From the NCBI GenBank assembly GCA_964573385.1, contig CAZNLA010000001.1, positions 1-51,434 of the forward strand: a stretch of DNA of 51,434 nucleotides. Direction: 5' to 3'. The DNA comes from an uncultured bacterium. Lineage in GTDB: Bacteria > Armatimonadota > Hebobacteria > CAIYQO01. Numbering within the stretch: the first letter of the stretch is position 1; the number at the start of each line of letters is the position of its first letter. Positions 1 through 7,538 of this stretch are shown piece by piece. Position numbers and translations under genes: made by a program. The notes beneath the pieces are model-generated. The model was not told the origin of the DNA. It did not search any database and worked only from the letters and a program-made list of their open reading frames with translations.

Positions 1-50
1 GTTCGGTTACCAGAGCTATTGGTGCATCAATGGTATGGAATTCTCTACTC

Positions 51-130
51 GACTATTTGTAATAAAGCCTTAATTACTTATTTAAAATCAGTGAATTATG
101 GTAATATGATAATAGAGGTTCATATTAATT
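51..130 (+). repeat. CRISPR leader-like element, copy 1 (subtype A; only the distal ~80 nt, upstream flank unique)
   Basis: TATTTGTAATAAAGCCTTAATTACT...AAAATCAGTGAATTATGGTAATATGATAAT...ATATTAATTA recurs at 283-396 and 1719-1832. A diverged form recurs at 559-664 and 2216-2320. An extended -10-like TGGTAATAT lies at 99-107, about 25 nt upstream of the first repeat fragment. Confidence 0.75.
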
Positions 131-282
131 AAATGCCGAAGGCATTGAAACGAACTTTGCAACGAGTATCTATCATTGTATTACGTTCGAACGACTAGGA
201 GAATGCCGAAGGCATTGAAACATTTGAACGATCCCACAGGCACCAACACCAGAGTTCGAACGACTAGAAGAATGCCGAAGGC
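131..282 (+). CRISPR. CRISPR mini-array 1 (2 spacers)
   Basis: 3' repeat fragment 131-151 (AAATGCCGAAGGCATTGAAAC), full 37-nt repeat 185-221, and 5' 29-nt repeat fragment 254-282. Spacers are 152-184 and 222-253. The strand is called from the ATTGAAAC 3' end of the repeat (typical Cas6 8-nt handle), the upstream leaders and the downstream terminators. Confidence 0.9.
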
Positions 283-396
283 TTAAATAATTACAAATTG
301 ATAATTACAAATTACAAATTATTTAAAATAAAGTCTTAATTGCTAATTCAAAATCAGTGAATTATGGTAATATGATAATTAAGGTTGATATTAATT
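283..396 (+). repeat. Leader-like inter-array element, copy 2 (subtype A)
   Basis: It follows the truncated repeat ending ...GCCGAAGGC at 282. It has internal short tandem ATAATTACAAATT units and TGGTAATAT at 365-373. It ends ...ATATTAATTA directly before the 3' repeat fragment. Confidence 0.8.
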
Positions 397-558
397 AAAT
401 GCCGAAGGCATTGAAACAGGGTTGCACGGTTGCGACCGCTGCGTAAACGTACGGTAGTTCGAACGACTATAAGAATGCCGAAGGCATTGAAACGCGATGA
501 AATCAGGTCGGTTCGATCAGGTATCAGAGGTTGCAACGACTAGAAGAATGCCGAAGGC
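397..558 (+). CRISPR. CRISPR mini-array 2 (2 spacers)
   Basis: 3' repeat fragment 397-417, full repeat 457-493 (variant ...GACTATAAG...), and 5' fragment 530-558 (variant GTTGCAAC...). Spacers are 418-456 and 494-529. Confidence 0.9.
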
Positions 559-664
559 ATAAATAATTGCAAATTGATAATTGCAAATTGTAAATTATTT
601 GTAATAAAGCCTTAATTACTAATTCAAAATCAGTGGATTTTGGTATCATATAAATTATGTTTCA
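559..664 (+). repeat. Leader-like inter-array element, copy 3 (subtype B)
   Basis: ATAAATAATTGCAAATTGATAATTGCAAATTGTAAATTATTTGTAATAAAGCC...AATCAGTGGATTTTGGTATCATATAAATTATGTTTCA. It carries the TGGTATCAT extended -10-like box. Confidence 0.8.
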
Positions 665-1718
665 GGCTATAAGAATGCCGAAGGCATTGAAACTCCAAAT
701 CTTGCTTGTTTTCATTTTTTAAGGTTCCGTTCGAACGACTAGAAGAATGCCGAAGGCATTGAAACTTGCCACTGTTTATGTTTACAGTGAACTTAACGTG
801 TGAGTTCGAACGACTAGAAGAATGCCGAAGGCATTGAAACTAATTTAAACTTCAAACGTGTGCGTATGCGTCGACCGGTTCGAATGACTAGAAGAATGCC
901 GAAGGCATTGAAACCATCCAACTTCTGGCATTTCATTTTCTTCTGGAATTGCGGTTCGAACGACTAGAAGAATGCCGAAGGCATTGAAACTTACTCAAGT
1001 CGGTCAAAAGATCACGGTCAGTATCTGGTTCGAACGACTAGAAGAATGCCGAAGGCATTGAAACATAGCGCGTCGCGTTCCTCGACGGTCATGCGATGTT
1101 CGAACGACTAGAAGAATGCCGAAGGCATTGAAACGGATCCATGACATTCATAAGTGGGGCATCGGCGTTATGTTCGAACGACTAGAAGAATGCCGAAGGC
1201 ATTGAAACGATGTTGATAAGTTTCATTTGATTGCTCCTTTTAAGGTTCGAACGACTAGAAGAATGCCGAAGGCATTGAAACTATTTAGTCAAAAAATCGT
1301 TACCTTGCATTTGTTGACCGTTCGAACGACTAGAAGAATGCCGAAGGCATTGAAACGTAGTTGTAATTCCGTTGGTGCCATTAATGCCATGTTCGAACGA
1401 CTAGAAGAATGCCGAAGGCATTGAAACGATCTTTGGTGGATAATTATTCCACACATTGGCCGGGGTTGTTCGAACGACTAGAAGAATGCCGAAGGCATTG
1501 AAACGTGCATTGTCAACACACCAGTGTTTGCCACCCATGAAGTTCGAACGACTAGAAGAATGACGAAGGCATTGAAACGTGGCTGAAAATAGGTATACGA
1601 TCTGTCCAGCTAAGTTCGAACGACTAGAAGAATGCCGAAGGCATTGAAACTTCTTAAGCAAATTAATTATAACTTCAGTAATTGCCCATGTTCGAACGAC
1701 TAGAAGAATGCCGAAGGC
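665..1718 (+). CRISPR. CRISPR mini-array 3 (14 spacers)
   Basis: 3' repeat fragment 665-693 (GGCTATAAGAATGCCGAAGGCATTGAAAC). Thirteen full 37-nt repeats start at 729, 804, 878, 954, 1028, 1098, 1172, 1245, 1320, 1391, 1468, 1542 and 1614. The 5' 29-nt fragment is 1690-1718. Spacers are 33-40 nt and all different. Confidence 0.95.
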
Positions 1719-1832
1719 TTAAATAATTAAAAATTGATAATTACAAATTACAAATTATTTAAAATAAAGTCTAAATTACTAATTCAAAATCAGTGAATTA
1801 TGGTAATATAATAATTAAGGTTCATATTAATT
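1719..1832 (+). repeat. Leader-like inter-array element, copy 4 (subtype A)
   Basis: Near-identical to 283-396 (TTAAATAATTAAAAATTGATAATTACAAATTACAAATTATTTAAAATAAAGTC...GTGAATTATGGTAATATAATAATTAAGGTTCATATTAATTA). Confidence 0.8.
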
Positions 1833-2215
1833 AAATGCCGAAGGCATTGAAACAGAACTGCTCCTGCCACTTTGGTTTTAACAATGTGTTCGAACGACTA
1901 GAAGAATGCCGAAGGCATTGAAACGAAGCATTTTTGCTAACAACTGCTTTGACTGCAGTGATGTTCGAACGACTAGAAGAATGCCGAAGGCATTGAAACT
2001 CTGGGTCAAGAGTATTACCCTTGAGCATCAGTTCTTGTTCGAACGACTAGAAGAATGCCGAAGGCATTGAAACGCCAAAAATGTCGATCACCCCTACGAG
2101 CAGATATGCTGTTCGAACGACTAGAAGAATGCCGAAGGCATTGAAACGGGCGGACATCGATAACTTTTATTGTCCAAGCATCCTTGGTTCGAACGAATAG
2201 AAGAATGCCGAAGGC
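1833..2215 (+). CRISPR. CRISPR mini-array 4 (5 spacers)
   Basis: 3' repeat fragment 1833-1853, full repeats at 1888, 1963, 2037 and 2111, and 5' fragment 2187-2215. Spacers are 34-39 nt. Confidence 0.95.
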
Positions 2216-2320
2216 TTTAATAATTACAAATTAATAATTACAAATTACAAATTATTTTAAATAAAGTCTTAATTACTAATTCAAAATCAGTGGATTTTGG
2301 TATCATGTAAATTGTGGTTC
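2216..2320 (+). repeat. Leader-like inter-array element, copy 5 (subtype B)
   Basis: TTTAATAATTACAAATTAATAATTACAAATTACAAATTATTTTAAATAAAGTC...AATCAGTGGATTTTGGTATCATGTAAATTGTGGTTCA. Confidence 0.8.
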
Positions 2321-2568
2321 AGGCTATAAGAATGCCGAAGGCATTGAAACACGAGTCGGTATTGCATTCCTTCGAGCTCAAATGCCTTGTTGCAACGACT
2401 ATAAGAATGCCGTAGGCATTGAAACGCTCCTGGTTGAATCTGAAAACTACCACGAGTGGCTGAGTTGCAACGACTATAAGAATGCCGAAGGCATTGAAAC
2501 AAATTTTTCATGACTTGCTCCCTTTGAAAAGATGTTATCGTTGCAACGACTAGAAGAATGCCGAAGGC
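2321..2568 (+). CRISPR. CRISPR mini-array 5 (3 spacers; GTTGCAACGACTATAAG repeat variant)
   Basis: 3' repeat fragment 2321-2350, full repeats 2389-2425 and 2464-2500, and 5' fragment 2540-2568. It is followed by only the first ~18 nt of the inter-array element (2569-2586) and then unique sequence. Confidence 0.9.
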
Positions 2569-2622
2569 TTTAATAATTACAAATTGAAAAGGATTGTCCA
2601 AAACTTAATCAACCAGAAGTAT

Positions 2623-2646
2623 TCCGAGCATCCTCCTCGGATTTTT
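2623..2646 (+). terminator. Rho-independent terminator-like hairpin 1 downstream of the CRISPR locus
   Basis: TCCGAG (2623-2628) pairs with CTCGGA (2636-2641) around a 7-nt loop and is followed by TTTTT (2642-2646). Confidence 0.55.
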
Positions 2647-2672
2647 GCGAGCAAGATGCTCGCAATACTTTT
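2645..2672 (+). terminator. Rho-independent terminator-like hairpin 2
   Basis: Perfect 9-bp stem TTGCGAGCA (2645-2653) / TGCTCGCAA (2657-2665) with a 3-nt loop, followed by TACTTTT. Confidence 0.55.
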
Positions 2673-2702
2673 GGTTATTGCAATTGTCTTTAGTAATTAA
2701 AG

Positions 2703-2770
2703 AATCTGTGAATCCTTTAATCATGTGAATAGTGGTTCAGGCTATAAGAATGCCGTATGTTATGAAAGGC
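2703..2770 (+). repeat. Degenerate subtype-B leader plus decayed repeat remnant
   Basis: AATCTGTGAATCCTTTAATCATGTGAATAGTGGTTCAGGCTATAAGAATGCCGTATGTTATGAAAGGC aligns with AATCAGTGGATTTTGGTATCATGTAAATTGTGGTTCAGGCTATAAGAATGCCGAAGGCATTGAAAC (2283-2350). Confidence 0.7.
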
Positions 2771-2789
2771 TATATCTAAGGAGAATATA

Positions 2790-2948
2790 ATGAATAAATT
2801 ACCAGAAGATCACGCTAAAAAGGTTTGTAAGATGTTCCAGGGTGCAGAATCATGTGCTTTTCTTGTACATAATTTTGATGGAGATGAGTTCACCTTTGCT
2901 TGTGCTAAGGGTGACCCTCTTGAGTTTAATATTCTTAAAAAAAATTAG
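2790..2948 (+). CDS. Small hypothetical ORF (52 aa), probably the N-terminal part of a split Cys-rich protein
   Basis: ATG at 2790 is preceded by AAGGAG (2778-2783). It translates to MNKLPEDHAKKVCKMFQGAESCAFLVHNFDGDEFTFACAKGDPLEFNILKKN. The stop comes directly after an A8 tract (2937-2944). This ORF is below the 60-aa cutoff of the supplied track. Confidence 0.4.
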   Translation: MNKLPEDHAKKVCKMFQGAESCAFLVHNFDGDEFTFACAKGDPLEFNILKKN

Positions 2949-2958
2949 CGAAGGCACT

Positions 2959-3201
2959 ATGAAGTCGAAAGGCAATCATTGTAGTGGCTACGGTGCTGAT
3001 ACGGCTAAAGTTTGTACTACTATTTGTAAAAATTCTGGTTCTCTCTGTTCGTTTTGTAATAATTATGATGTTATGTCTTGTCGATATAACGTGAATTCAT
3101 CACTTAAGATTTCATGTATCCCGACATGTGAAAGACCGGGAGGGCCTTGTCCTGAAGGTGAAACATTTTATGAGAAGGCTGGAGCAAAGTTTGAAAAATA
3201 G
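2959..3201 (+). CDS. Cys-rich hypothetical protein (80 aa from ATG 2959; the frame is open from 2842)
   Basis: MKSKGNHCSGYGADTAKVCTTICKNSGSLCSFCNNYDVMSCRYNVNSSLKISCIPTCERPGGPCPEGETF... contains 11 Cys. The frame is +1 relative to ORF 2790-2948 and would fuse to it if the A8 tract lost one A. Confidence 0.35.
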   Translation: MKSKGNHCSGYGADTAKVCTTICKNSGSLCSFCNNYDVMSCRYNVNSSLKISCIPTCERPGGPCPEGETFYEKAGAKFEK

Positions 3202-3211
3202 ATGAATAAAG

Positions 3212-3241
3212 TTGACGGGATTTGAAAGGCAGTGCTACAAT
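3212..3241 (+). promoter_or_regulatory. Sigma70-like promoter candidate for the CARF operon
   Basis: TTGACG (3212-3217), an 18-nt spacer, then TACAAT (3236-3241), about 165 nt upstream of ATG 3406. Confidence 0.4.
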
Positions 3242-3405
3242 AATGACATGATTATAACCGTTTATATCGGTTAGAGAAGTTGGACTTCATTATGCCGCTG
3301 GAAGCCCGATAATATTAAGAAAATGAAATCTCACGACAAACAGTGGTATATAGGTTAAAGTTGTGTCCAAACAATCGGATGTGGCACAGATAAAAGGATA
3401 TATTT

Positions 3406-4701
3406 ATGAAATACTTATTGCTTACAGTGGGTGGATCCTATCAACCGTTAGTGAGAGCTATTACCACATTAGAACCAGATCATGTCGTGTTTTTATGTTC
3501 AAAAGACACAACCGAAGGCAAAGGATCATACACACAAGTTACGGGTGCAGGACTGGTGTGTGGTGGCAGACCCGGGCAACCTGCAGACCAACCATGCATA
3601 CCTGCTCAAACTGGTTTAGCTCCAGACCAATATAACTTATCAATCTATGATATTGACCCCGATGATTTGAGTGATTGTTATAGTAAATGTGCAAATGTTA
3701 TACAACAGATACGCGCAAATGATTCACAGGCAAATATATACGCAGATTATACCGGCAGTACTAAATCAATGTCAGCAGGTTTGGCGTGTGCGGCATTAGA
3801 TGATGGTAAGATAAATATTATGTTGGTGACCGGTTTTCGACCAAACCTGGTTGCAGTACAGGATGGTTGCGAATTTCTTACTCGTGCTAAGGTTGAATCA
3901 GTTATTTTATTACGGATAAAAAAAGAGATAAACAGGTTATTAAAATCTTATGATTACGCATCAGCAGAGAAAGTATTGCGTGTTTACCTGTCTGACACAA
4001 CTAATAACATGGTAAGTGAATGGTTGGCTATTTGTAAGGCTTTTGATGCCTGGGATAGGTTCGACCATAAATCTGCCATAAAATTCCTGAATTCAACTAA
4101 AAAGTATCCCAAACATATAGCATTTCTTGGTAAATTAGAGGATATTATAACTGCTGATGCTGGTAAAGTTGAAGATAAAGATGCGGTAGAACCTAACCCG
4201 AAGATTGGATTTATGCTGGTTACAGATATTTTAGCGAATGCTCGCAGAAGGGCCAGTCAGGGACGATATGATGATGCCATAGGCCGACATTACAGAGCAG
4301 TTGAATTAATAGCGCAAACATTGTTATTGGTTAAGTGTGGGATAAAAACAAGTGAATGTCCTGTTGCTGAAATACCTGCGGAATGGATGTGGAAGATAGA
4401 CGAAGGGCAAACTGAGATTAAATTAGGATTAATGAAATCATGGGAATTAACGGCTTATAAATGTCCAGAAATTGCTGAACAATATAAATTATTTAAATCA
4501 CAATTATTAAGTGCTATTGAACGAAGAAATATGAGCCTTTTTGCACATGGTACAGTTCCAATAAATAAACAAGATTATGAAGATGATGTTAAAAACGGAA
4601 TGGCCGCATTTGCAGATATGATATTAAAAATAATAGCGAAAGATAAGAAAATTACTCCTCCGGATATGTTTTCTCCGGATTTTGTAACAGAATTAGAATG
4701 A
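3406..4701 (+). CDS. CARF-HEPN protein, Cas02710 (TIGR02710)-like type III CRISPR accessory effector
   Basis: 431-aa ORF. The N-terminus has the CARF-type start MKYLLLTVGGSYQP and DYTGSTKSMSAG (DxTGGTK-like). The C-terminus has ANARRRASQGRYDDAIGRHYRAVE and ERRNMSLFAHG (Rx4-6H HEPN-type motif, nt 4522-4551). The family is recalled from memory, not searched. Confidence 0.7.
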   Translation: MKYLLLTVGGSYQPLVRAITTLEPDHVVFLCSKDTTEGKGSYTQVTGAGLVCGGRPGQPADQPCIPAQTGLAPDQYNLSIYDIDPDDLSDCYSKCANVIQQIRANDSQANIYADYTGSTKSMSAGLACAALDDGKINIMLVTGFRPNLVAVQDGCEFLTRAKVESVILLRIKKEINRLLKSYDYASAEKVLRVYLSDTTNNMVSEWLAICKAFDAWDRFDHKSAIKFLNSTKKYPKHIAFLGKLEDIITADAGKVEDKDAVEPNPKIGFMLVTDILANARRRASQGRYDDAIGRHYRAVELIAQTLLLVKCGIKTSECPVAEIPAEWMWKIDEGQTEIKLGLMKSWELTAYKCPEIAEQYKLFKSQLLSAIERRNMSLFAHGTVPINKQDYEDDVKNGMAAFADMILKIIAKDKKITPPDMFSPDFVTELE

Positions 4702-4711
4702 CGGTTTACTT

Positions 4712-6220
4712 ATGACTATTGATAAAAAAACAGCTTTAATATTGTTTGCGTCAGAACAGGTGTGGCCAAATCTGCTAAGTATAGAGTGGTATCACCAAAA
4801 CGCTAATTTAACCAATGTGTATATATACCACACAAATGATGAACAACGATCGGCAATGCCTGCACAGAGAATAAAAAAGTTTTGCGAACTTCAATATCCT
4901 GACCTGCAATGCGTAATGCCCATAGATGGTATGCCAATGACACCGGATAAAGTTGTTGAGCAGGTATCAGCATGGTATGACGGAAATCAAGAGATATCGA
5001 ATTGGGTTATAAATGCTACTGGTGGTACAAAATTAATATTTGCCGGTGCGGTTAATACATTAATAATGCAAAATAGATTAAGAAAATGGGATTTTATTTA
5101 CTGTGAGTTGGGTGGATGGTATGGTTTGTCCCTTGATTTGTTGGGGTTGATAATCGCTGATAAAATGGATGGAAAATTTATCCCCTTTGATACACTAAAT
5201 AATGTGCCACTGCTTAATCTTATTAAAACACAATTTCAAAGTAAAGATGATTTGATATGGTATGCAGGGACAAAAGAGATATTTACATCAATCAGCATGG
5301 ATAATATGAGAACTATGCTGAGTCTGGGTGAATCGGAGAATTGGAATTGGAAAAAGCTATTTCAACAAATTGATGTTAACCCGGAAAATACATCAAGTGG
5401 TTTATTATTTGAACAATTCATTGCGGCTTCAATAATGTTGATAGGATTAGATAAAAGTCAAATCGACATAAATGTTGTTTCTAAAAGTAAAGAACATGGG
5501 AATGTGCAGCAAGAAATTGATGTTATAGTAAATAATAACGGCCGATTGATTATCTTTGATTGTAAATTAAAAGATGTAGATTCGGAAAGTGATGCTTTTA
5601 TAACACATATAAAAGCATCACATGATACCACGCAAATGTTAGGAGGATTAAATGCTCAATGTGTAATGATTCGTCCTAACAGAATTGTAAATGATGAAGA
5701 AAAGTTGATTGCATCCGCTTGGCGAGTGAAAATACTGGGACTAAGTGAGTGTAAAAACTTATTTACGGAAATTGGCAAAATAATTCAGATAAATCCACCG
5801 GAAGATATGCTTGCTGTGGAGCAACTTTATTTAAATGACTATAGCATAAAACCCATATTGGTTCCTATTAAAGAATCGGAACGACTTATGGCAGATGACC
5901 AACATATTCTTAGGATTAATTCTATACAGACTTATTTTCAACGAGTAAATTGTTGGGAAAATATAGGATGGGTATCAATAGAGGTCGGGTCAAATATTTG
6001 GATAATCAGAGATGTTTTCTGTGGGATTAAAGATTTTAACAGAACTGATAAAAGGATAGCTTTGGTAAATATGCTTACACAGATATGTGATAATTATCAA
6101 ATAACAATTAGTAAGACAGGAATTTCATGGTATGCTATTATTTTTATTAATAATGATGATAAAAGAAAAGCATTCAATATCTGGATAGATGACAGTGCAA
6201 CAAATCATAATTTGTTATAA
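4712..6220 (+). CDS. Can2/Card1-like CARF + PD-(D/E)xK nuclease with an extra C-terminal region
   Basis: 502-aa ORF. ALILFASEQVWPNLL and INATGGTKLIFAG are DUF1887/Card1-type CARF motifs. The nuclease motif is QQEIDVIV-x8-LIIFDCKLKD (nt 5513-5575). About 150 C-terminal aa carry no motif I recognise. Confidence 0.7.
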   Translation: MTIDKKTALILFASEQVWPNLLSIEWYHQNANLTNVYIYHTNDEQRSAMPAQRIKKFCELQYPDLQCVMPIDGMPMTPDKVVEQVSAWYDGNQEISNWVINATGGTKLIFAGAVNTLIMQNRLRKWDFIYCELGGWYGLSLDLLGLIIADKMDGKFIPFDTLNNVPLLNLIKTQFQSKDDLIWYAGTKEIFTSISMDNMRTMLSLGESENWNWKKLFQQIDVNPENTSSGLLFEQFIAASIMLIGLDKSQIDINVVSKSKEHGNVQQEIDVIVNNNGRLIIFDCKLKDVDSESDAFITHIKASHDTTQMLGGLNAQCVMIRPNRIVNDEEKLIASAWRVKILGLSECKNLFTEIGKIIQINPPEDMLAVEQLYLNDYSIKPILVPIKESERLMADDQHILRINSIQTYFQRVNCWENIGWVSIEVGSNIWIIRDVFCGIKDFNRTDKRIALVNMLTQICDNYQITISKTGISWYAIIFINNDDKRKAFNIWIDDSATNHNLL

Positions 6221-6255
6221 TTTGTTAAGGAAATTCAAAATAGAAGGAGCAAATA

Positions 6256-6588
6256 ATGTCGGAACCAGTTATAAAAATAACAGATGTAAAAGTGACCGAA
6301 ACGATTATGCCGGTCAAGCAGATTTCTTTTGAGATACCTGGTGGGAACACCACACCACAGGAGTTTGCTACCGCAGTTTCAAAAATGCCTGAGGTAAGTG
6401 GTAGAAATATAATACTTATAGAAGGCAGAGGGCCTATTTGGGGGTATGGTATGATAATGCATAAAGCACATGCTACCACCGCTATTGGCTGTTTTGATCC
6501 GCGCCTTGAAGGCTATGTAGTTGTGCAGTCGCATAATGACAGTATTGTTGTTGGTCAAATGCTAACGCTGATTTTGAAGGGTGAATAA
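6256..6588 (+). CDS. csx3: Csx3 (Crn3) ring nuclease
   Basis: 110-aa ORF with SD AAGGAG. IILIEGRGPIWGYGMIMHKAH...AIGCFDPRLEGYVVVQSH matches the Csx3 core pattern (GRGPiW ... DPRL.gyvVv.SH). Confidence 0.8.
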   Translation: MSEPVIKITDVKVTETIMPVKQISFEIPGGNTTPQEFATAVSKMPEVSGRNIILIEGRGPIWGYGMIMHKAHATTAIGCFDPRLEGYVVVQSHNDSIVVGQMLTLILKGE

Positions 6589-6590
6589 AG

Positions 6591-7538
6591 ATGTTAGATG
6601 TAATAAAAAGTAAATTTGGAAATCTGAAAAGCTTAATGAAGAAAAATAGAGACGCTATTTGCATAGTGTTTCTCGTTTTGGGCAACCTTACAATTGCCGA
6701 TTTTGTAACAGAAGGTTTAAAAAAGATATTTTCATTCCTTTTTGCTGAACAAAAGCCTACAGTATATTTTACTGTAGAAAATTTCTGGTTATATTTTACA
6801 ACAATTGTTTCAATATTCATATTTGTATGGTTCTCTTTTATGATTTATAAACTTAAAGAGAGTTTTACCAGAGTTAGAACATTGGAATTATATGAAAGTA
6901 GAAAACCGCACAAAGGATTAATAATATTATTGTCAACACCCACCATGGGTATTAATGTAACATTTAATACCGGTATTCAGTTGTGGAGTATTAATAATAA
7001 AGGTACATCTGTTGATTTTAATGGTCAAAGTTTAGACGATGATGTTGAAGCACTGGCGTTATCACCAATAGGTTGTAATTGGGAGATGTTAATGCGAGGA
7101 ATAAATGCAAATTTACCTAAATTGGAAAAAGTAATTTTGATTTGCTCTGCTGTTGGGAAGAAACCAAATGGGGACCCATTACCAGGATCGGTATCAAATT
7201 ATGAAGATGCGAAGCAAATAATAGACCATTACACCATGCCCAATGATGAGGTTTCTATTGTCACAAAATTTCCTGATGATATGAACGGGGTTGATTTTGA
7301 GGATTTGGATGCATTGACCCATGTGTTGCAAGATGCTATTGACTATCTTCATCATAAATGTCAAATACCTCACCGGGAAATACTTATTGATGTTACCGGA
7401 GGACAGAAAGTTACCAGTATTGCCGGTGCTTTGATTACTTTAAAGAATGAAGTGAAGATTCAGTATGTTCCAACAGGGAACACAAACACAATTAAGTTGT
7501 ATAACACTGTCATGGAAGACGCACCTGACATGGGATGA
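6591..7538 (+). CDS. Membrane-anchored CARF protein (Cam1-like architecture: 2 TM helices + CARF)
   Basis: 315-aa ORF that starts 3 nt after the csx3 stop. The TM segments are AICIVFLVLGNLTIADFV and FWLYFTTIVSIFIFVWFSFMIY. The CARF-like elements are HKGLIILLSTP, VILICSAVG and LIDVTGGQKVTSIAGAL (nt ~7386-7420). Confidence 0.6.
   Translation: MLDVIKSKFGNLKSLMKKNRDAICIVFLVLGNLTIADFVTEGLKKIFSFLFAEQKPTVYFTVENFWLYFTTIVSIFIFVWFSFMIYKLKESFTRVRTLELYESRKPHKGLIILLSTPTMGINVTFNTGIQLWSINNKGTSVDFNGQSLDDDVEALALSPIGCNWEMLMRGINANLPKLEKVILICSAVGKKPNGDPLPGSVSNYEDAKQIIDHYTMPNDEVSIVTKFPDDMNGVDFEDLDALTHVLQDAIDYLHHKCQIPHREILIDVTGGQKVTSIAGALITLKNEVKIQYVPTGNTNTIKLYNTVMEDAPDMG

Follow-up and report, generated by a model that had tools for sequence, protein, structure and literature searches.

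The DNA analyzed here, referred to as the window, is a stretch of 51,434 nucleotides from an uncultured bacterium of the Armatimonadota, and near its start lies a CRISPR locus in which an AT-rich, leader-like element recurs between short arrays. The locus proper (window 54-2568, + strand) consists of five head-to-tail mini-arrays with 2, 2, 14, 5 and 3 spacers, respectively, built on a 37-nt repeat, GTTCGAACGACTAGAAGAATGCCGAAGGCATTGAAAC. In total it holds 21 full and 5 truncated copies of this repeat, that is, direct repeats of constant length, as expected of a CRISPR array. The spacers are 32-40 nt long. No other array occurs in the genome assembly. An earlier note, made from the sequence alone, had described the locus as cut into five by a reiterated leader-like element that always sits at the same point of the repeat, and this description was borne out in every point: array ends of 29 nt, array starts with only the 3′ part of a repeat, 12 or about 19 nt of repeat on both sides of the element and, as established by spacer comparison, 26 spacers that are all different.

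At the end of each mini-array, the terminal repeat comprises the first 29 nt of the repeat (coordinates in Table 1), with the copy at 530 matching over 31 nt. These terminal repeats end in ...GAATGCCGAAGGC, followed by TTAAATAA, ATAAATAA or TTTAATAA; two copies carry the variant GTTGCAAC and one carries GAATAG. The first repeat of each mini-array is reduced to its last 20 nt behind element copies of subtype A or to its last 27 nt (CTATAAGAATGCC...) behind those of subtype B. Hence, all six leader-proximal repeats lack 10-17 nt at their 5′ end, and none of the leader copies is followed by the complete first repeat that is expected of a CRISPR leader. Each element copy is flanked on both sides by the same stretch of repeat, 12 nt long in subtype A and 19 nt in subtype B, and the 12 nt common to both flanks of every copy read AATGCCGAAGGC. 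This apparent duplication arises because the last repeat keeps positions 1-29 while the first keeps positions 18-37 (A) or 11-37 (B), so that the two overlap on the hairpin.

The repeats vary at two sites. Their first 8 nt form one of two alternative perfect palindromes, GTTCGAAC or GTTGCAAC, which are related by a double, palindrome-preserving change. The latter is found in the repeats at 457, 530, 2389, 2464 and 2540, all others carrying GTTCGAAC, and it is exactly this palindrome that is absent from the first-repeat remnants. At the second site the repeats read CTAGAAG or CTATAAG, and all four combinations of the two sites are present. In array 3, the first remnant has CTATAAG, yet the 14 repeats of this array have CTAGAAG and are full length. 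Mini-array 5 has the GTTGCAAC/CTATAAG variant, which we regard as the older one; the repeat of a relative, designated G004 (the present genome being G000), likewise starts with GTTGCAAC.

The part of the element that is not repeat measures 115 nt in subtype A and 108 nt in subtype B. Along the locus, the subtypes follow each other in the order A A B A B, with a sixth, decayed B copy at the end. Identities were computed for the 115 alignment columns that separate the 29-nt head of the repeat from its 20-nt tail; they amount to 95.7% between A copies, 88.7% between B copies and 77-83% between subtypes, far beyond chance. An (AATTACR)n heptad microsatellite makes up the left third of the element. 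As a whole, the element has the properties of a leader, being AT-rich, non-coding, located directly 5′ of the first repeat on the strand that encodes the CRISPR RNAs (crRNAs), and conserved across arrays that share a repeat. The extended −10-like boxes (TGGTAATAT or TGGTATCAT) and the internal ATAATTACAAATT units pointed out in the earlier note are indeed present in the copies. Subtype A additionally contains sigma-70-like matches (TTCAAA-18-TATAAT or TATGAT) together with TG-extended boxes, the consensus used being that of sigma-70, which may not be the one of the host. A search for hallmark families, as indicators of lineage and promoter type, gave one match to the tail family of the type IX secretion system (T9SS) and one match to SusD. 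The best-conserved block of the leader is AAAATCAGTGRATTWTGGTA. In the subtype A leaders (86-98, 352-364 and 1788-1800), AATCAGTGAATTA lies within the most conserved block and agrees perfectly with WATCARNNNNTTR, the IHF consensus, from which subtype B departs by one mismatch; in AT-rich DNA such a match could be due to chance.

Table 1. Features of the multi-leader CRISPR locus and its surroundings, in window coordinates.
Feature	Position	Strand	Remarks
Group II intron, 3′ end (domains V-VI)	1..53	+	multi-copy intron; inserted in heptad part of element copy 1
Leader copy 1, subtype A	54..131	+	left heptad part cut off by intron; homology to other copies begins exactly at 54
Mini-array 1	132..282	+	20-nt first-repeat remnant, 2 spacers, one full repeat, terminal repeat 254-282
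Element copy 2, subtype A	283..397	+	heptad tract and leader with TGGTAATAT box; 95.7% identical to copy 4
Mini-array 2	398..558	+	first-repeat remnant, 2 spacers, terminal 29-nt repeat of GTTGCAAC type (530-558)
Element copy 3, subtype B	559..666	+	TGGTATCAT box; 88.7% identical to copy 5
Mini-array 3	667..1718	+	27-nt first-repeat remnant (CTATAAG), 14 spacers, terminal repeat 1690-1718
Element copy 4, subtype A	1719..1833	+	best sigma-70-like match TTCAAA-18-TATAAT
Mini-array 4	1834..2215	+	first-repeat remnant, 5 spacers, terminal repeat 2187-2215
Element copy 5, subtype B	2216..2323	+	identical in assembly L048
Mini-array 5	2324..2568	+	27-nt first-repeat remnant, 3 spacers, terminal repeat 2540-2568
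Heptad stub of element copy 6	2569..2587	+	aligns with first 19 nt of other copies
Insert with dispersed double hairpin	2588..2674	+	hairpins at 2623-2641 and 2645-2665; terminator-like on + strand
Decayed leader copy 6, subtype B′	2675..2770	+	72% identity; decayed first-repeat remnant 2742-2768; spacer-free
Type III accessory genes (Csm6 HEPN, Card1-like, Csx3)	3406..6588	+	directly downstream of the arrays; Pfam matches

Interrupted element copies at both ends

Window 1-55 is the reverse complement of positions 1-55 of contig C454 (100% identity over exactly 55 nt) and also matches many contig ends. Contig C454 contains a group II intron of 1,975 nt with an open reading frame (ORF) for a reverse transcriptase/maturase (462 aa, reverse transcriptase motif ...YADDFVI...). 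Rfam searches with this intron returned RF02005 at 110.7 bits and RF00029 at 55.2 bits; the RF00029 match ends at position 3 of C454, equivalent to window position 53. Taken together, window 1-53 and C454 show the RNA structure of domains I-IV and V-VI as well as the intron-encoded reverse transcriptase that characterize a group II intron. The boundary between window positions 53 and 54 corresponds exactly to that between ...ACAAAT and TATTT in the internal elements, and copy 1 is a shortened element because the intron hit its heptad part. At other copies of the intron, AT-rich heptads (...AATTACGAAT, ...AAAATGTAAAAT) typically form the end of the 5′ exon, and the intron appears to home into heptad microsatellites. 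The same intron breaks the assembly at many places (C454, C159, C595, C147, C115, C139 and about 15 contig heads), while a second intron family, approximately 82% identical, ends many other contigs.

Downstream of mini-array 5, the sixth element copy is likewise disrupted: its heptad stub is followed by an insert with a double hairpin, and homology to the B leader restarts at about 2675, 3′ of this insert. The first-repeat remnant of copy 6 has lost its hairpin in the predicted fold, and the decayed copy is followed by the Shine-Dalgarno sequence and ATG of a small ORF at 2790. The double hairpin (CCGAGCATCCTCCTCGG, 4 nt, TTGCGAGCAAGATGCTCGCAA) resembles repetitive extragenic palindromes (REP) or miniature inverted-repeat transposable elements (MITEs), and, by its position after the last mini-array, also a pair of terminators. 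Genome-wide, the second hairpin has 32 matches and the other one 10, and the pair recurs at the same 21-nt offset at at least 10 other places; double-hairpin sites include C2:19309, C37:6379, C134:391, C229:3960 and 4181, C281:3488 and the tail of C606. With the intron upstream and the hairpin insert downstream, both ends of the locus are interrupted element copies. The seemingly unique outer flanks of unit 1 and array 5 had raised the idea that the element is a composite of a true trailer and a true leader; this was rejected once the flank on the upstream side had proved to be a group II intron and the break on the downstream side a dispersed hairpin insert.

Orientation of the arrays and associated cas genes

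The repeat ends at its 3′ side in the 8-nt handle ATTGAAAC, preceded by a hairpin. An 8-nt end of this type is the usual crRNA handle of type I and type III arrays processed by Cas6. The hairpin is predicted to fold as AAUGCC-GAA-GGCAUU with −6.1 kcal/mol. First repeats of type A fold into the full 6-bp hairpin with handle and the terminal repeats keep at least its GCC-GAA-GGC core; the type B remnant shares the hairpin sequence, which is, however, paired in another way in the minimum-free-energy fold. In agreement with the orientation given by the handle, the + strand is the one that carries the promoter-like sites of the leader and, after array 5, the terminator-like hairpins. On this strand, the spacers are rich in T (306 T vs 242 A), and two of them (1209-1244 and 2501-2539) contain the reverse complement of a ribosome binding site with start codon (AAGGAGCAATCAAATG and GGAGCAAGTCATG, respectively), a combination that occurs in no spacer in the forward sense. 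These features weakly suggest that the crRNAs are antisense to mRNAs, as type III targeting requires, in which case those of the two spacers mentioned would pair with translation-initiation regions of target mRNAs.

The accessory genes directly downstream tie the arrays to a type III system. Elsewhere in the genome, contig C267, separate in the assembly from contig C1, on which the window lies, carries a type III RAMP module (TIGR03986, 293 bits) together with Cas6, and contig C537 encodes Csm3/Csm4 (type III-A-like). The C267 Cas6 is orthologous to the Cas6 located beside an array of the same repeat family in G004 (46% identity, E 8e-83), for which reason it is likely the enzyme that processes transcripts of this locus. 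The only cas1 genes found are a type I-C Cas1c (C36, 449 bits) and a type II Cas1 with Cas9 (C16, 258 bits); a cas1 linked to type III genes was not detected in the assembled genome, which is 87% complete. On both of these contigs, the sequence breaks off at cas1 or immediately behind it, and neither a type I-C nor a type II array was assembled.

Origin and function of the reiterated junction

The data are best accommodated by a composite locus, in which a founder junction with its leader-plus-array module was probably copied by recombination between CRISPR repeats and in which the units would serve as expression modules instead of representing insertions of a mobile element. The founder junction would have consisted of a last repeat decayed in its final 8 nt, an AT-rich leader composed of the heptad tract and a promoter-like core, and a 5′-decayed first repeat, and would have been copied at least five times along the locus, either by unequal exchange or by gene conversion or template switching, with parts of the repeat as homology arms. 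Duplication and deletion of CRISPR segments as well as inter-locus recombination through repeats have been documented (PMC4390879), and the formation of multiple arrays by duplication or splitting has been discussed, along with a more even expression from several arrays (PMC12814883). The junction is identical in every copy because it was inherited by copying, in support of the fixed recombination junction that had been one of the two options considered in the earlier note; by the same token, the junction pattern counts as one observation and not as six. The presence of all four combinations at the two variable repeat sites points to exchange among repeats. Moreover, the graded identities between element copies fit successive copying rather than a single burst, and the 29-nt left arm travels with the cassette, J2-3 being identical to J5-6.

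With regard to function, our best guess is that each unit acts as a restart module with processing-competent repeats at its edges. The leader would supply a predicted promoter; the first-repeat remnant would provide the hairpin and the ATTGAAAC handle that Cas6 needs to generate the 5′ end of the first crRNA; and the terminal remnant, which lacks only the 8-nt handle, would reach as far as the predicted Cas6 cut, located behind GGC and 8 nt before the end of the repeat, and so set the 3′ end of the last crRNA. The expected 8-nt 5′ handle of the crRNAs is AUUGAAAC. What has disappeared, by contrast, are the repeat ends on which a Cas1-Cas2 integrase would depend at the junction with the leader. 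Rather than five active sites of acquisition, the units therefore appear to be modules for expressing a spacer set that is largely frozen and serves a type III system.

Several observations weigh against this interpretation. Firstly, simple unequal crossing-over should duplicate neighboring spacers, whereas all 26 are unique, even beside copies 2 and 4 with their 95.7% identity; either later spacer turnover or a patch-type insertion with only the 29- and 20-nt arms is thus needed. Secondly, a working integrase must at some time have produced the 26 spacers as well as the full repeats of arrays 3 and 4, 19 in number and identical, so that the term frozen may describe only the present. Thirdly, as the genome is 87% complete, a type III-linked cas1 may be missing from the assembly. 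Finally, the promoter boxes are matches to a consensus only, with 14 found in the region where 9.3 are expected.

The uniqueness of the spacers would be accounted for if the junction cassette (29-nt repeat head, leader and 20-27-nt tail) propagated itself into pre-existing arrays, using the repeat fragments as homology arms. Copy-choice or gene conversion at the repeat hairpin could in that case subdivide long arrays without duplicating spacers, which would also explain why the junction is sited at the hairpin and why identical repeats of arrays 3 and 4 flank a young cassette copy. Although we consider such spreading unlikely, it would amount to a self-spreading promoter cassette that turns long arrays into separately promoted units.

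Similarly doubtful is the possibility, raised in the earlier note, of several independent acquisition sites. The locus would then comprise five adaptive arrays operating in parallel, each leader copy directing new spacers to the decayed first repeat or to the first full repeat behind it. The 26 unique spacers would be in line with such activity, all the more because those beside the near-identical copies 2 and 4 differ, and the conserved leader block AAAATCAGTGRATTWTGGTA could be a site for integrase or a host factor as well as a promoter. Furthermore, internal insertion away from the leader end has been documented for locus E of Sulfolobus solfataricus (PMC4390879), and the type I-C adaptation module of the genome might act in trans. 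Integration, however, duplicates the first repeat, yet none of the downstream repeats has the 5′-decayed form, and those of array 3 additionally differ from their first remnant at the CTATAAG/CTAGAAG site. Since the decayed remnant differs from the full-length repeats downstream, these are not copies of it. The two cas1 genes are of other CRISPR types, and neither is linked to type III genes. In addition, spacer content is identical in three assemblies, including ones from at least two other samples, which may be closely related, and an exact match in the viral collection IMG/VR was found for none of the five leader-proximal spacers. Searches for spacer targets gave none in this genome and none in phage records.

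A further alternative is that the element is a small, non-autonomous, MITE-like mobile element which inserts in the repeat hairpin and duplicates 12 nt of its target, as the earlier note had suggested in terms of a target-site duplication. Every copy is flanked by the same 12 nt, the position of the junction within the repeat is fixed, and the genome is rich in mobile DNA, as exemplified by the group II introns and the double-hairpin element. Nevertheless, the overlap varies in length, subtype B having 19 nt, and inspection of the sequence revealed no terminal inverted repeats. Neither a full copy of the element nor, on other contigs, the 29-nt repeat head was found elsewhere in this genome; in genome and metagenome contig collections, the leader core gave only isolated, AT-rich chance matches without the repeat. 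Look-alikes outside the locus exist for the heptad part only. This microsatellite occurs at 41 other loci in the genome as opposed to none in shuffled sequence. A 21-nt heptad pattern has 54 matches in this genome and 51-56 in each of two congeners (G010 and G011), both of which lack this CRISPR repeat family; matches are few in a neighboring genus and absent from the family's remaining genera, and a reversed control gave 0. The heptads are therefore a generic, genus-wide feature of the lineage and not specific to CRISPR. The right two thirds of the element, on the other hand, have leader features and the correct orientation, and copying of the whole junction accounts better than repeated insertion for both the graded divergence of the copies (identities of 77-96%) and the co-inheritance of a variant 29-nt left arm. 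The MITE explanation is thereby largely refuted and we regard it as very improbable. The (AATTACG)n and (AATTACA)n microsatellites are intergenic (e.g., C17:25658-25706, C761:7-62 and C132:4443-4477).

An RNA-level origin, in which a Cas6-cut pre-crRNA joined to a leader transcript was reverse transcribed, came to mind because the left junction coincides with the predicted Cas6 cut. It was rejected, as the left end of the element lies approximately 85-90 nt upstream of the promoter-like box and so cannot be the 5′ end of a transcript.

With the window beginning at the very first base of contig C1 and the genome being split into 822 contigs, the possibility of an assembly artifact needed testing. 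No 55-mer recurs within window 1-2800, the longest stretch identical between two element copies being 42 nt. The order of the units is consequently uniquely determined at k = 55, as a single graph path whose junction k-mers must stem from real reads. Two assemblies in ENA, each from another sample, reproduce the locus: ERZ4201038 (7,093 nt) covers window 1-7093 from the same start base with one single-nucleotide polymorphism, located in a spacer, and ERZ4223250 matches window 1924-4804 at 100%. It is thus extremely unlikely that strain variants of one leader-plus-array were chained together in a metagenome bin, despite the position of the locus at the very start of a contig beside an assembly-breaking repeat and the low coverage of the ENA assemblies (3-4x by contig name), given the single k = 55 path, the recovery of the same sequence from different samples and the divergence of 4-23% between copies, which marks them as distinct loci.

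Relatives and known composite loci

Among 401 genomes of the phylum, the repeat family was found only in the present genome and in G004; other single repeat matches in phylum genomes were dismissed as chance, e.g., one on G004 contig C679 in coding DNA. In G004, complete first repeats are present. In independent arrays of G004 and L056, the terminal repeat likewise loses just its last 6-8 nt. A solitary unit is present 3′ of cas6 in G004 (C677:8580-8720; L009/L011), with a first repeat lacking exactly the first 8 nt, one spacer and a strongly decayed repeat. In its variant (GGCATTGAAAC), the repeat of this unit corresponds to that of the window and not to that of the main array of G004. A comparison between strains through the adjacent Csm6 gave a next homologue of only 48% identity, and the loci of this homologue and of two others carry ordinary arrays of other repeat families.

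The locus shares several traits with the composite loci of Sulfolobales (PMC4390879) and with multiple arrays of the same repeat (PMC12814883), namely repeat-mediated rearrangement, a repeat and a leader common to all arrays, a single cas set, and constancy of spacers in arrays whose leader is lacking or impaired. It differs from them in that its units abut directly, the terminal repeat touching the next leader, in that six leader copies are packed into 2.8 kb, and in that every unit has retained, of its first and last repeat, only the parts required to process crRNAs. We conclude that the locus is of a known kind, composite CRISPR loci of duplicated leader-array modules, and reflects real and fairly ordinary evolution of a CRISPR locus. 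Searches of the literature for leaders that are internal, duplicated or multiple revealed no paper with exactly this architecture, the specifics in question being the direct abutment of units, the six leaders in 2.8 kb and the cutting back of both edge repeats.

The CRISPR-II region of Escherichia coli reportedly contains two neighboring arrays, CRISPR2.2 and CRISPR2.3, with a short leader-derived segment between them, one of the arrays being a frozen remnant. Our locus is similar in having adjacent arrays of the same repeat and orientation separated by a leader-derived segment, and dissimilar in being associated with type III instead of type I-E, in comprising five to six units instead of two arrays, and in the uniform truncation of its first repeats. 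The genome of Methanocaldococcus jannaschii is said to contain units of a long repeat plus short repeats, with many arrays each behind one conserved leader. There too, one leader sequence is reiterated before many small arrays of the same repeat, except that those units are dispersed around the chromosome, whereas the present ones are strictly in tandem and joined through a fixed end-of-array/leader junction.

Arrays can also be divided by foreign DNA. In Mycobacterium tuberculosis, the direct repeat (DR) locus is split by the insertion sequence (IS) IS6110. CRISPR II of Streptomyces avermitilis is split by transposase genes (PMC4762764). As in these cases, one array here lies in parts, and mobile DNA has hit the locus as well, the intron in copy 1 and the hairpin insert in copy 6. 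Unlike in these cases, the divider itself is neither an IS nor a MITE, since it is devoid of coding capacity, inverted ends and copies elsewhere, and it has the features of a leader.

As such, the locus is a clean natural example of the remodeling of CRISPR loci by their own repeats. It also constitutes a natural dissection of the repeat, the parts involved in making crRNAs being kept at the array edges and those needed by the integrase having decayed. If the internal leaders are active promoters, they would even out the crRNA supply along a memory of 26 spacers, in a type III system that seemingly lacks adaptation genes of its own. There are practical consequences, too: array finders will report five short arrays or set boundaries and orientation incorrectly, and metagenomic analyses of spacer order would get the relative ages of the spacers wrong if they presuppose a single leader in each locus.

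Two minor observations concern other contigs. Long tandem arrays of a palindromic unit, GTAGAGACGCAAnnnnTTGCGTCTCTAC, are present on C71 (6968-7440), C96 (13129-13577), C118 (3830-4350), C301 and C543; they have a CRISPR-like spacing with near-identical 'spacers' and are not CRISPR. The last ~60 nt of C537 correspond to the Illumina TruSeq adapter (AGATCGGAAGAGCACACGTCTGAACTCCAGTCAC...), an untrimmed adapter in the assembly.

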